Positions 1,732 through 31,939 of a DNA stretch of 33,349 nucleotides are shown one piece after another. The stretch is from NCBI GenBank assembly GCA_001871755.1, contig MNXL01000393.1:1-33349 (forward strand), in the 5' to 3' direction. The translations under genes were made by a program, and so were the position numbers. The number at the start of each line of letters is the position of its first letter. Positions within the stretch are counted from its first letter, which is position 1. The notes under the pieces were generated by a model. It did not search any database and had not been told where the DNA came from. It saw nothing but the letters and a program-made list of their open reading frames with translations. The stretch comes from Anaerolineae bacterium CG2_30_64_16 (GTDB lineage: Bacteria; Chloroflexota; Anaerolineae; CG2-30-64-16).

Positions 1732-4422
1732 ATGATGTTCAACAAGGACAGGCGTCTGCCTGGCCCGACGCAGGCGCACGCAAGGCAATGGGCGCTGGTG
1801 ATCCTGGCGTTGCACCTGGCCCTTGGCGGCCTCTACAGCGTCGTGGCGCCGCCCTGGGAGGCGCACGACGAATGGGCGCACTATAAGTTCGTGGAATATG
1901 TCGCACGTCATCGGGCATTGCCGCCCCCCGACGTGCGTTTGACAAACGAATACGAGTACGACGAAGCCAATCAGCCGCCCCTCTACTACGTGATCGCTGC
2001 CCTGCCGGTCATGCTGATCAACACGGACGACGGGGTCATCCCCGACGTCAATCCGCATTTCGGCACCGGGACTGGCGCCGGCGGCATCAACGCCGCCATC
2101 CACCACCCCGACCAGGAACGCTTTCCCTGGCGCGGGACCATCCTGGCGCTACACCTGGCCCGCTGGGCATCCCTGGCGATCAGCCTGGTGGGACTGGTCG
2201 CGGTCTACAAGCTGGGACGGCTGTTGGCCCCGGGGCGACCCTCCGTGGCGCTGATCGCCCTGATTATCGCGGCGCTGTCGCCGCAGTCGCTGTTCATCAG
2301 CAGCGTGGTCACCAACGACGTGCTGATTGCCGCGTTGGGGTGCGTGATCGCCTGGTTGGGAACTGAGGTCGTGCTGAACGGCTTGCGACCGCGATCGGCG
2401 CTGGGGCTGGCCCTGACGACCGGGCTGGCGTTCGTGAGCAAGCTGTCCGCGTTGGCATTGGCGCCTTTCGTGCTCCTGGCTCTGATCGCCGGCGCGATCC
2501 GTTCGCTGCGCCGGGGCAGCAACCGGCTGACCGTCCTGCTGACCTTTGCGATCCCGCTGGCTGGCGGGTTGGCGATCGGCGGGGCGTGGGTCGCGCGCAA
2601 CGTGCGGCTGACCGGGCAACTGCTGCCGCGGGACCCGTGGGTAGCGTTCCGTTTCGTGGACCGCTGGTTCAGCCGCACCGGCACGGTCAAGCCGATACAG
2701 TGGGAGGCGCTGCCCTCCGCGCTGGTCTACGGTTTTCGCACCTTTTGGGCGTCCTTCGGCTGGGGTAACCTGGAAGCGTACAGGTGGGTGTACTGGTTTT
2801 TTGCCGCACTGTGCCTGGTTGCGTTAGCCGGGTTGGGCCGCTGGGCGTTCGCGGGACGCGAGGGTGCAACGCCACGGCGGGTGAAAACCTCACCCCCCTC
2901 CCCCCCTCTCCTACGAGGCGAGGGGGGTGTCGGCGCTCCCCCTCCTTCGCAGGGAGGGGGTCGGGGGGTAGGTGGGCGATTTTCAGGGCAGTTTTTCATG
3001 CCGTGTCCGCCGCCACGACGGATGAAAAACGGACGGCCTGGACTGGAGGCTTTAGCCGGTTTGGTTGTCAGCGGCAGAAACCGGCTGAAGCCTCGATTCC
3101 AGATCGTTGGTGGGCGATTTTCAGGGCAGTCTGGGCGGGACAAGAAGATCGCGGCCGGGTTGCTGCTCGTGTTGGCCGCGTCCGTGCTGTTCATGGCCGC
3201 CTACCGTGACTTCGACTACGGTGGCACGCTGATCCGAGGGCGTTATCTGCTGCCCGCGCTGGGAGCGGTCGCGACCCTGCTCGCGTTGGGGCTGGATAAT
3301 CTTGTCTGCCGTCCCGGCTCGGTCTCAGGCCGGCCAGAGCATGCTAGATGCGCGGTCCCGCTGGTGTTGACCTGCGTGCTCACCATCTTCAACCTGCTGT
3401 TGCCGCTGAACGTGATCGGGCCGGCCTATGCACCGCCGGCGATGCTGTCCACCGCCGATCTGTTGCCGAGAGAACAGCCGTTGGACGCACGTTTCGGGGA
3501 CGCGGCCGAACTGGTGGCCTACGGACTCTGGCCCGAGCGCGTCCGGACGGGCGATGCGCTGGGCGTGACGTTGCTCTGGCGCGTGCTGGCGCCATTGGAT
3601 CGGAACTACACCGTCGGCGTGCACCTGTTGAACGCGACAGACCAGGGCAAAGTGGGCGAGCTCAACATCTACCCCGGCCGCGGCAACTATGCCACCACGC
3701 TGTGGCAGCCGGGAGACCTGTTTCGCGAGACCTACTGGGTCACGGTCGGCCAGGCGATCGCGCAGCCGGTCATGGGTCGGGTCAAGGTGGCGCTCTTCGC
3801 CGATGACGCCGGGCAAGCCGCATCTGAAGAAACGTATCTGCCGGTGATCGATGCTGCGGGCCAGCCGTTGGGCGATGCTTTGATGTTCGGCCGGTTCAAG
3901 TTGGCGCCCATGGAGCCGGCAGCCGTGGCCGCCGCTCAGGGTCCCGGCCTGGCGACGTTGGGTGAGTTCGCTCGCCTGGAGAGCGCGACCTGGCCAACCG
4001 ATATCCCGCATCTGTTAGCCGGCAGCACCTTCACCGTGACGCTGACGTGGGGAGCTCTGGCCCGGCCGCCGGCCGATTATCAGGTTTTCCTCCACGTGGA
4101 AGGACCGGACGGCCCGCTGGCTTTCGGTGATGGCCCGCCGCAAGCGGGCGCCTATCCCACCGGCCTCTGGGAGCTGGGCGAGCAGATCGTGGACCCGCGG
4201 GTGGTCCGGTTGCCGACCGAGATGCCGGCGGGCGACTACCGACTGGTAACCGGGCTGTACGACGCGGCCGGCCAACGCGTCATCGCGACCGGCCCGGACG
4301 GTCAGCGGCTGGCCGACGATCAGATCGAATTGGGGCGCGTCACCGTGGCGCGCCTGGACCAGCACAATTACATCCCTTGGGCGCCTGGGCATGCCGTGGA
4401 CGGGAACAACAAGGAGCCTTGA
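1732..4422 (+). CDS. GT-C-type (PMT/ArnT/DUF2142-like) multi-TM glycosyltransferase with C-terminal extracytoplasmic beta domains; carries in-frame repeat insertions
   Basis: GAGGAGG at 1713-1719 then ATG 1732. Loop motif PPWEAHDEWAHY after TM1, plus TND, FWASFGW and GRYLLP; two 'Y-x-V-F/G-x-H...W-x-x-G-E/D' beta repeats. Confidence 0.8.
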   Translation: MMFNKDRRLPGPTQAHARQWALVILALHLALGGLYSVVAPPWEAHDEWAHYKFVEYVARHRALPPPDVRLTNEYEYDEANQPPLYYVIAALPVMLINTDDGVIPDVNPHFGTGTGAGGINAAIHHPDQERFPWRGTILALHLARWASLAISLVGLVAVYKLGRLLAPGRPSVALIALIIAALSPQSLFISSVVTNDVLIAALGCVIAWLGTEVVLNGLRPRSALGLALTTGLAFVSKLSALALAPFVLLALIAGAIRSLRRGSNRLTVLLTFAIPLAGGLAIGGAWVARNVRLTGQLLPRDPWVAFRFVDRWFSRTGTVKPIQWEALPSALVYGFRTFWASFGWGNLEAYRWVYWFFAALCLVALAGLGRWAFAGREGATPRRVKTSPPSPPLLRGEGGVGAPPPSQGGGRGVGGRFSGQFFMPCPPPRRMKNGRPGLEALAGLVVSGRNRLKPRFQIVGGRFSGQSGRDKKIAAGLLLVLAASVLFMAAYRDFDYGGTLIRGRYLLPALGAVATLLALGLDNLVCRPGSVSGRPEHARCAVPLVLTCVLTIFNLLLPLNVIGPAYAPPAMLSTADLLPREQPLDARFGDAAELVAYGLWPERVRTGDALGVTLLWRVLAPLDRNYTVGVHLLNATDQGKVGELNIYPGRGNYATTLWQPGDLFRETYWVTVGQAIAQPVMGRVKVALFADDAGQAASEETYLPVIDAAGQPLGDALMFGRFKLAPMEPAAVAAAQGPGLATLGEFARLESATWPTDIPHLLAGSTFTVTLTWGALARPPADYQVFLHVEGPDGPLAFGDGPPQAGAYPTGLWELGEQIVDPRVVRLPTEMPAGDYRLVTGLYDAAGQRVIATGPDGQRLADDQIELGRVTVARLDQHNYIPWAPGHAVDGNNKEP
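2866..2992 (+). mobile_element. Composite repeat copy A (shell + CCTCACCCCC-type palindrome), in frame in CDS
   Basis: CGCCACGGCGGGTGAAAA, then C-rich/G-rich inverted pair 2887-2973, then GGTGGGCGATTTTCAGGGCAGT. Closely matches 31821-31939. Confidence 0.8.
2993..3130 (+). mobile_element. Composite repeat copy B (shell + GGCTTTAGCCG-type palindrome), in frame in CDS
   Basis: TTTTCATGCC..GCCACGACGGATGAAAA, then a 17-bp inverted repeat (3046-3062/3078-3094), then the identical 22-bp right arm (3109-3130 = 2971-2992). Length 138 bp = 46 codons. Confidence 0.8.
3316..3340 (+). repeat. GGCTCGGTC..GGCC..AGC REP-like unit, in frame
   Basis: GGCTCGGTCTCAGGCCGGCCAGAGC resembles 30626-30651 and the minus-strand copy at 25922-25970; it encodes GSVSGRPE between two TM helices. 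Confidence 0.6.
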
Positions 4423-31804: not shown

Positions 31805-31939
31805 ATCGTGCCGGGCGTGACGCCCCGGCGGATGCAAACCTCACCCCCCTACCCCCCTCTCCTACGAGGCGAGGGGGGGCGGCGCTCCCCTTCCCTCGTA
31901 GGGAGGGGGTTGGGGGGTAGGTGGCCGATTTGCAGGGTA
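31805..31939 (+). mobile_element. Composite repeat copy D (shell + CCTCACCCCC cargo) in the pcm 5' leader
   Basis: ATCGTGCCG..CGCCCCGGCGGATGCAAA, then cargo 31838-31922, then GGTGGCCGATTTGCAGGGTA; colinear with copy A. Confidence 0.8.

Follow-up and report, generated by a model that had tools for sequence, protein, structure and literature searches.

A modular repeat with a conserved shell and exchangeable palindromic cores in Anaerolineae

Introduction

Four loci in one stretch of Anaerolineae DNA carry the same short arms around different palindromes, which raises the question of what the repeated unit is and how it spreads. The stretch (the window) is 33,349 nucleotides (nt) long and comprises positions 1 to 33,349 of contig MNXL01000393.1 of Anaerolineae bacterium CG2_30_64_16, phylum Chloroflexota. 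The arms are termed here the shell, and the palindromes between them the cores. The original prediction, made from the window sequence, held that the four loci (A to D) form a non-autonomous element that captures, or is targeted by, several families of repetitive extragenic palindromes (REPs). All four loci are present, with slightly shifted boundaries.

Arms and core together are the repeated unit. This unit has inserted at new places, including genes, and its cores are exchangeable. The elements sit directly 3' of ..AG, preferably after a sequence like their own tail, and the loops of both shell and core carry small palindromic inserts. We assign a probability of roughly 55% to the reading that this is a lineage-specific family of small non-autonomous mobile repeats composed of three modules: a left hairpin, a swappable palindrome and a tail.

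The window is contig C331 of genome G000, an assembly of 3.99 Mb in 409 contigs with 64% G+C and an estimated completeness of 76%. G001 is a relative from the same genus; G008, G009, G010, G012, G015 and G034 are other genomes of the family. The window stretch is also present in public groundwater and aquifer metagenome runs. A scan of metagenome contigs yielded 54 loci with 66 left-arm sites, 51 of which have a right arm; some of these contigs may be sources of the compared genomes, and 3 of the 54 loci are chance matches inside an unrelated gene.

Architecture and co-occurrence of the arms

The shell begins with a left hairpin (..YYCATGCCG, a 9-nt loop and CCACGGCGGATGAAAAC) and ends with a 3' tail, CAGGRCAG. 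Between them, the stem of the central palindrome is lengthened by inverted shell heptamers, TGAAAAC and G(A)TTTTCA. Elements span 55-350 nt, mostly 105-143 nt, and the shell alone accounts for 51 nt. Inverted symmetry is confined to the heptamers that border the core: the outermost sequences, TTTCTCATGCCG.. and ..TTTTCAGGGCAG, do not form an inverted pair. A classical miniature inverted-repeat transposable element derived from a DDE (Asp-Asp-Glu) transposase was rejected on the absence of outer terminal inverted repeats.

Chance matches to the arms were estimated from the G000 genome reversed but not complemented. The right-arm 13-mer occurs exactly 25 times in the 3.99-Mb genome, and 45 times with at most one mismatch, against 1 in the control. 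The 17-mer of the left-arm 3' half is found at 70 sites with at most three mismatches (control, 4) and at 51 with at most two (control, 0). The left-arm 5' half is a weaker motif, with 32 matches against 14 at no more than one mismatch. The literal left-arm pattern first proposed is too strict, matching only 4 sites, and it is the 17-nt 3' half that recovers the family. A right arm lies 36-301 nt downstream on the same strand at 41 of the 70 left-arm sites, and on the opposite strand within 300 nt at none of the 70. About 14 of the 70 were judged by eye to be chance matches in coding sequence. The possibility raised at the outset that the arms co-occur only at chance frequency is not what these counts and their low controls indicate. 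The layout of a shell with a swappable core is genome-wide and far from chance.

Cores carried by the shell

At least eight unrelated sequences occur between the arms in G000, all of them palindromic and resembling REPs or inverted-REP pairs (REPINs), and at least ten unrelated palindromic families serve as cores across several genera. That the sequence between the arms differs among copies is thus true well beyond the window. The types in G000 include a C/G-rich double hairpin (copies A and D), a GTAG-tagged REPIN (GTTCGTAGTGACGAC..GTCGTTACTACGAAC), a GCTCGGTC..GACCGGCC hairpin with a GATTCGTTGTTTTCCCC tail (copy C), a GGCTTTAGCCGG palindrome (copy B), a CCCCCCAA..TTGGGGGG type, a longer ATCCCTCACCGCTCGGG type and a GTCATTCTGAGCGG..CCGTTCAGAGTGAC type of ~200 nt; others occur besides. 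The combination of a GTAG tag with inverted REPs is found in one core family only, GTTCGTAGTGACGAC..GTCGTTACTACGAAC, and not in the shell arms.

For each arm-core combination, several copies are scattered over unrelated sites and are 88-100% identical. Grouped by length class, copies are 0.84-1.00 identical, and the class medians lie at 0.92-1.00 apart from one pair at 0.84. Copies of one combination have identical junctions, whether they stand at separate loci or in arrays. Cores are also found outside the shell: both arms flank 11 of 35 C/G-rich regions in G000, 9 of 19 GTAG REPIN regions, 12 of 40 GCTCGGTC regions, 4 of 29 GGCTTTAGCCGG (GCTTTAGCC) regions and 2 of 18 regions of the CCCCCCAA type. 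Other wrappers exist, the GGCTTTAGCCGG hairpin being found in two more and the GCTCGGTC hairpin in a third.

Shells with enlarged loops and near-empty shells also occur. A GTCCTGAGC..TCGAAGGG unit, often in tandem, lies in the left-arm loop, which then measures 33, 41, 49, 57, 63, 79 or 81 nt against the basic 9; the same unit is found in the GCTCGGTC hairpin after GCAGAC and in the C/G-rich hairpin. In a sister mini-family of 10 copies, every copy has inserted after TTGAGAAG in another palindromic repeat, and two members (C213 and C291) are near-empty shells with a 3-nt core. One metagenome locus (L206) has canonical arms around 5 nt. A 51-nt tandem array at G012:C237:6400-6700 (L007 1024-1260) combines the 3' half of the left arm with one half of the GTAG REPIN; it apparently results from slippage of the left arm against a similar word in the REPIN centre.

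Near-empty shells and solitary cores would both be expected if the shell were an old, immobile palindrome whose loop is a landing hot spot for independent mobile REPIN families, so that arm-core units never move. REP dimers inside fixed palindromes are already described in passages of PMC3733652. This landing-pad explanation is nevertheless highly improbable, as it leaves unexplained why arm-core copies, many of them nearly identical, share their junctions in arrays and across unrelated loci. Empty shells are also rare relative to filled ones, and the insertions in genes described below hold arms and core together and are absent from orthologues.

Copies in the window

Copy A (2872-2991, plus strand) is truncated at its 5' end. 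It retains the left-arm 3' half (2872-2888), a C/G-rich double-hairpin core (2889-2978) and the right arm (2979-2991); the 5' half is absent, as the original prediction had it. Other copies of the copy A core, on metagenome contigs with loose ends at 2870, have the full left arm. Copy B (2992-3129, plus strand) adjoins A head to tail and is complete at 138 nt. Its left-arm hairpin (2992-3029) consists of a 5' half at 2992-3003 (TTTTTCATGCCG), a 9-nt loop and a 3' half at 3013-3029 (CCACGACGGATGAAAAA), followed by the core (3030-3116), which is the 87-nt GGCTTTAGCCGG palindrome, and by the right arm (3117-3129), ATTTTCAGGGCAG.

Copy C (25877-26059, minus strand) is complete at 183 nt, with the right arm at 25877-25889, the left-arm 3' half at 25974-25990 and the 5' half at 26048-26059. 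Its left-arm loop measures 57 nt, as inserted GTCCTGAGC..TCGAAGGG units add 48 nt to the basic 9, and its core is a GCTCGGTC hairpin with a nested 24-nt insert and a GATTCGTTGTTTTCCCC tail. Copy D (31802-31941, plus strand) is complete but degenerate and intergenic. It carries the core family of A, its left flank ends in CAG, and it is absent from the matching intergenic site of the same-genus G001.

The predicted single-stranded DNA fold of B has an energy of -37.4 kcal/mol and a z-score of -4.4 against shuffles. The z-score for D is -5.3; that for A is less clear, at -1.7. Contigs of four public runs, one of which may be the source sample, bridge the junctions from unique flank to A and from B to unique flank. 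The A+B pair is therefore not an assembly artefact of this metagenome-assembled genome.

Cores without the shell are real within the window as well. A C/G-rich palindrome of the A/D core family, lacking the arms, lies at 29285-29375 (plus strand) inside the long open frame 28594-30141. Since a related palindrome occupies the matching position in G001, this insertion may be older than the split of the two species. Solo hairpins of the copy C core family lie at 3316-3343 (plus strand; GCTCGGTC..GACCGGCC), within the gene at 1615-4422, and at 30626-30653 (plus strand; GCTCGGTC..GACC family), within the open reading frame (ORF) 30020-31714; both sit inside coding sequence. The region 3297-3349 is strain-variable: contigs of other runs differ here by clustered substitutions and small deletions, and the orthologues have a loop of another length.

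Copies inside genes

Copies A and B lie in a gene on the plus strand (1615-4422) for a PMT_2 membrane glycosyltransferase of the GT-C type (Pfam PMT_2, 28.4 bits; cut-off, 26.1). The frame remains open through both copies, without a stop. Together they add 81 amino acids to the protein. When aligned with it, the orthologues of G008 and G012 prove to be without this block, which falls in a short loop between hydrophobic segments. In BLAST comparisons, the G008, G010 and G012 orthologues match the query at approximately residues 50-422 and 506-926 only, and the DNA of the empty site in these three genomes agrees with the absence of A+B. Copy A begins within the left arm, at a CCA that is also found at the empty site of G012. 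In the G001 orthologue (G001:C25:6150-6480, L023), the region of the A+B loop is missing and the frame is changed there, either through deletion or through assembly collapse at the repeat.

This is not a single case. A second GT-C-like ORF in G000 (C314) runs through three stacked units to the end of its contig, and in the loci of relatives many units lie in long, co-oriented open frames with high G+C at third codon positions (GC3) and hydrophobic flanks. Pfam assigns PMT_2 to loci L009 and L049 (above the cut-off) and L063 (below it), and thiamin pyrophosphokinase to L043; L010, L044, L055 and L064 have no Pfam match, and L060 has a sub-threshold match to DUF2142 only. In the thiamin pyrophosphokinase gene, two stacked units account for ~89 residues in G010 where the G000 orthologue has 11. 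In all, 11 loci have in-gene copies, every one co-oriented with its gene; this count excludes L008, L011, L059, L065 and L074, in which the coding signal is weaker.

The 40-residue translation of the shell with the GTAG core is found in 11 longer database proteins. Five of these have Pfam domains: PF01943/PF13440; PF00534/PF13692 plus two more; PF04101/PF03033; PF13231; and PF01478. We take these to denote a polysaccharide flippase, glycosyltransferase families GT1 and GT28, PMT_2 and a prepilin peptidase, respectively. A sixth protein is labelled glycosyltransferase family 39 by its source. Because gene callers can extend ORFs through elements, these proteins point to an association with real genes and not necessarily to an internal position. 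Shell elements also break assemblies, many being located at contig ends, and they create or extend spurious ORFs.

The lengths of the elements are consistent with passage through reading frames. Among 65 complete elements, of which G000 contributes 28 and loci of relatives the others, 48 have lengths divisible by three. So do 25 of 40 family-length classes (p 1.5e-4 in a binomial test with an expectation of one third) and 8 of 11 family modes (p 0.009); the figures for G000 alone and for the metagenome loci are 21/31 and 22/40. As classes within a family are not independent and some families were lumped in clustering, the bias is a real tendency, not a law. A TGA in ATGAAAAC closes one sense frame in every element; of the remaining two, one is open in 36/65 elements and the other, frame 2, in 54/65. 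Counting all frames, 150 of 390 are open against 99.8 +/- 7.9 in mononucleotide shuffles. In-gene copies are read in sense frame 2 (..SHAA..ATADEN..IFRT), with the exception of A+B, which is read in frame 0.

Distribution in relatives

The left-arm 17-mer was counted, at no more than one mismatch, in 37 family genomes and in 401 genomes sampled from the phylum. It is multi-copy in 7 of the 37: G000 (36), G001 (12), G010 (20), G012 (20), G015 (7), G009 (5) and G034 (4). The other 30 have 0-2 matches, 22 of the 37 have none, and the control pattern has none in any family genome. Outside the family there are single matches only, in 12 genomes; the control pattern matched 2. The search of related Chloroflexota called for by the original prediction thus found the layout conserved across genera, with other cores. 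The arms are nearly unchanged (consensus CGCGCGGCG), and the loop is kept though it lies outside the search pattern. Some cores of relatives are common with G000 and some are new; the latter include GGGACGCGGATGG.., AGCGGAGGCGGCTCCC.., GGGCCGCGGATCAGC.., GTCATTGCGAGGAGCG.., GTACCGCAAGCC.. and others.

Conservation of the shell across genera would also fit a host-selected module that accepts any strong hairpin, as a two-way terminator, an RNA-stabilising stem or a BIME-like protein-binding site (BIME, bacterial interspersed mosaic element), and is kept for its function. Its ATGAAAAC-hairpin-GATTTTCA layout has the A-tract/stem/T-tract form of a two-way terminator, and a crude gene call from GC3 places 44 of 51 arrays between genes. 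We nevertheless consider a module kept for function very unlikely. Copies occur in the ORFs of real genes and are read through, tandem stacks reach four units, orientation to neighbouring genes has no preference, and the family's genomes carry the shell only patchily. Conservation also covers parts for which a terminator has no need, namely the left hairpin and the CAGGRCAG tail.

Insertion sites and arrays

The left flank ends in AG in 49 of 64 elements. Exact abutment of elements (..CAGGGCAG-TTTCTCATGCC..) produces head-to-tail arrays of two to four units, as at C202, C314, C383, C70 and C158 of G000 and at G010:C210; docking after a tail-like sequence accounts for this arrangement. Solitary units, too, follow tail-like words (tcaggcag, cagctcag, caaggtag, cagagcag). 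Over the last 10 nt, flanks and the elements' own tails agree at 497 positions against 469.7 +/- 5.7, a value reached in 0 of 5000 within-genome shuffles. Rare variants are common to flank and own tail at several sites: CAAGGTAG at C14, CAGAGCAG at C337 and L048, and GGGAAG at L065. At C81, C302, C158, C258 and C286, a canonical tail is paired with a poorly matching left flank, which argues that the tail is part of the element and not merely duplicated target.

Comparison of filled and empty sites had been proposed as a check for target duplications. It did reveal that the A+B and kinase inserts are absent from orthologues. For a target duplication of fixed length the signs are mixed: flank and own tail are alike beyond chance, yet the suffix common to the two varies from 0 to 12 nt, and the tail is canonical where the flank is not. 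No intergenic empty site was readable in G001, whose spacers are too diverged and contain other repeats.

The agreement between flank and tail gives weight to a serious rival, transposase-free template switching at tail-like sites. Short-homology recombination, or a switch of replication template, would re-insert tail-bounded units after these had been copied or excised as loops, and hairpins would promote the stalling of forks. The excess of rare variants common to flank and own tail speaks for such a route, as do the frequency with which elements are preceded by another element's tail, the internal slippage array at G012:C237, the start of copy A at a CCA also present in the empty site and the negative enzyme searches reported below. 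Three points make it unlikely in our view. Solitary copies with canonical tails have poor flanks at the five sites named above; recognition of a specific sequence is suggested by the strong conservation, from genus to genus, of the left-arm 3' half and loop; and 12 nt of homology is short for efficient recombination.

Search for a mobilising enzyme

On the reading as a mobile, non-autonomous family, an enzyme would act in trans. G000 has four genes for single-tyrosine (Y1) HUH (His-hydrophobe-His) enzymes (PF01797), at C42:1577-1921, C261:5407-5745, C144:4765-5097 and C386:149-502. The first three resemble REP-associated tyrosine transposases (RAYTs), and each is flanked by its own REP family; the fourth is an IS200-like gene with an internal TAG. 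The REP of the C144 RAYT is GTGCCAGGCAC.., and that of the C261 RAYT carries a tail-like TTCAGGCAGGG word. The C261-adjacent repeat was rejected as a relative of the shell, being a separate family of ~8 loci despite that word. The ends of the IS200-like gene at C386 and of an IS607-type unit at C34 are unrelated to the shell, and a family-wide search with the C144 RAYT gave no correlation with shell content.

The original prediction that the element is non-autonomous fits these data: no arms bounding a gene and no transposase with shell ends were found. The check it proposed, for copies beside a RAYT or an IS200/IS605 TnpA gene, revealed none at the Y1 genes examined in G000 and its relatives.

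Several observations weigh against a mobile family moved by such an enzyme. Shell arms lie near none of the four PF01797 genes of G000, in an incomplete assembly, and are absent from the 2.0-3.4 kb loci around seven Y1 genes of relatives, which have REPs of their own. The C144-type RAYT was not found in shell-rich G001, G012, G009 and G015 (assemblies likewise incomplete), and a PF01797 search of five genomes revealed no Y1 type evidently common to all shell-rich genomes. IS110 was not found in G000, G001 and G010, and TnpB occurs only in the unrelated IS607-type unit, without tracking the shell. No autonomous copy emerged, either as a right arm 400-3500 nt after a left arm in G000 or among the 54 metagenome loci; the assemblies are fragmented, so this is weak evidence. 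No empty allele was found in contigs of the four runs, which carries little weight as contigs break at repeats. Intergenic copies are unbiased in orientation by the crude gene calls (upstream gene, 21 co-oriented and 13 anti-oriented; downstream, 17 and 19). The left-arm 5' half is present in 31 of the 41 paired copies and missing in 10, and so may be dispensable. The length statistic counts related copies, and the reversed control has 122 open frames, nearer to the observed 150 than the shuffles are. Finally, rare tail variants common to flank and own tail are unlike the prediction for classical IS200/IS605 elements. This co-variation is better explained by a step that matches target to tail, through pairing, short homology or duplication.

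If the repeats are a mobile family all the same, the steps may be as follows. A trans-acting enzyme, comparable to HUH enzymes of the IS200/IS605 or RAYT type, would recognise the tail, the loop and the conserved 3' half of the left arm; its substrate would probably be folded single-stranded DNA. Four traits suggest HUH-type chemistry: the outer ends lack inverted repeats, two hairpins are subterminal, insertion takes place 3' of a short word, and the cores are of REP type. Target choice would depend on a match to the element's own tail. Insertion of another palindromic repeat into the apical loop of either shell hairpin could create a new core, and the resulting chimera would then be amplified. 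Copies that land in genes would be read through, and selection may account for lengths divisible by three and for the scarcity of sense stops. Of the points in the original prediction, the layout, the naked cores and the missing enzyme fit the present data; its choice between capture of, and targeting by, REP families is a matter of interpretation.

A bolder view regards the shell as the chassis of an undescribed transposition system. Such a system would match targets to its own 3' tail (guided by DNA or RNA, or primed by homology), accept any long hairpin as payload, remain translatable and remodel loops of envelope glycosyltransferases and other membrane proteins in Anaerolineae. This we regard as quite unlikely.

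Other features of the window

Several further repeats lie near the elements. Two 66-nt direct copies of another repeat (GCCCGTCATTCCCGCGAAAGCGGGAATCC..), 98% identical, are located at 1553-1618 and 1637-1702, at the annotated start of the PMT_2 ORF. Its summed contig depth in four metagenome runs is ~750-5800, against 3-13 on the flanks, an excess which indicates that the repeat is common to many organisms in those metagenomes. Short repeats also occur at 28592-28634 (T-rich GTTTCCTTGTCTAC type, upstream of a gene) and at 26060-26135 (TATCCTCTCAAAAAGG.. type, beside copy C); both types have many copies, 90-98% identical, in G001, G010 and G012.

Heptamer tandem repeats (AATCCGC-like) lie at 20391-20445, inside the ORF 18848-21658. 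The GT-C-like protein of C314 (ORF from 7866) has similar in-frame runs encoded by heptamers (..ESANRQTG..). At 5650-13746, the window has a run of long ORFs missed by the GC3-based gene filter, whose calls covered 81% of the genome; this may be a compositionally different, acquired part of a glycosyltransferase-rich cluster.

Relation to known repeats

In architecture the shell is closest to BOX elements and is also close to wrapped REP dimers. The BOX elements of streptococci (boxA - boxB(n) - boxC; boxE/F and boxD in Streptococcus suis) are, as passages of PMC3049150 describe them, variable inner modules framed by end modules. S. suis has an additional type of inner module, and one and the same inner module is found there between end modules of two kinds. 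The likeness, which is one of architecture only, extends to tight folding, ORFs on the element, clusters and in-gene copies, judging from the same passages. In BOX elements, the inner modules belong to one or two families and vary in number, whereas the shell has a single core drawn from at least ten unrelated families. BOX elements also have terminal inverted repeats and target duplications, whereas the shell has no outer inverted repeats and no evident duplication of fixed length; they belong to a different phylum.

Wrapped REPs are the second precedent. In parts of Di Nocera et al. 2013 (PMC3733652), REP dimers are centred in conserved palindromes, namely GTAG-15 of Anabaena variabilis and CGTC-1 of Halothiobacillus. 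The Anabaena wrapper given there ends in TGAAA--TTTCA at the insert, like the inner heptamers of the shell. Those cases, a passing mention in the passages concerned, have one REP family per wrapper in one species; the shell has many families per wrapper, a second hairpin and a tail, arrays and conservation across genera. With these wrapped dimers and the BOX end modules as forerunners, the original prediction of a level of organisation above REP, REPIN and BIME cannot be upheld as one without precedent.

Likeness to REP/REPIN-RAYT systems lies in the cores, which are REP- or REPIN-like and in one case GTAG-tagged, in the presence of RAYT-like genes with their own REPs in G000, and in the persistence of both REP/REPIN families and shell cores across genera. 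BIMEs are mosaics of REPs and other short motifs. The shell differs from all of these in being asymmetric, common to many REP families and beside no RAYT gene found.

Miniatures of IS200/IS605 elements (palindrome-associated transposable elements, PATEs) have no terminal inverted repeats, have subterminal hairpins, insert 3' of a short word and make no fixed target duplication. The shell resembles them in structure only, through its subterminal hairpins, its lack of outer inverted repeats and the AG that ends most left flanks. It differs in that no TnpA with shell ends was found, the right-hand hairpin is variable and the similarity of flank and tail reaches 8-10 nt.

Copies in genes recall the Rickettsia palindromic elements (RPEs) and REPs in ORFs, palindromic repeats that lie in frame in genes which stay open, as set out in a part of PMC3733652. 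A+B, the C314 array and several loci in relatives likewise lie in ORFs that stay open; A+B and the kinase insert of G010 are in addition absent from orthologues. RPE sequences are unrelated to the shell and not modular, and most shell copies are intergenic.

Three more distant candidates were rejected. Under a CRISPR-like reading, the 'spacers' are themselves repeated palindromes. The core sites R'' and R' of integron attC have the consensus RYYYAAC ... GTTRRRY, with which the inner heptamers TGAAAAC / G(A)TTTTCA agree only in their AAC/GTT ends. A known RNA family finds no support, as Rfam 15 has 0 matches at the gathering score in the window; sub-threshold matches are to a generic hairpin (miRNA precursor), over A and B only. 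No description of the shell element was found in the limited set of literature searched; supplements of the two papers cited above may list further wrapper cases.

Significance

What is new relative to known systems is one asymmetric, two-hairpin chassis with at least ten unrelated cores that is conserved across genera, docks on its own tail and has lengths biased towards divisibility by three. The usual account of small bacterial repeats is of one family at a time; this chassis, itself conserved, is combined with many unrelated palindromes in several genera. The shell is thereby a natural experiment that separates what the mobilising machinery recognises, the arms, from what it ignores, the core. 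The apparent insertion of palindromes in hairpin loops and the docking on the element's own tail provide testable rules for the building of BIME- and BOX-like mosaics. In this poorly studied phylum, selfish repeats may have a way of supplying new loop segments to proteins, as suggested by the length bias, the scarcity of stops and the copies read in frame within PMT_2/GT-C and other genes.

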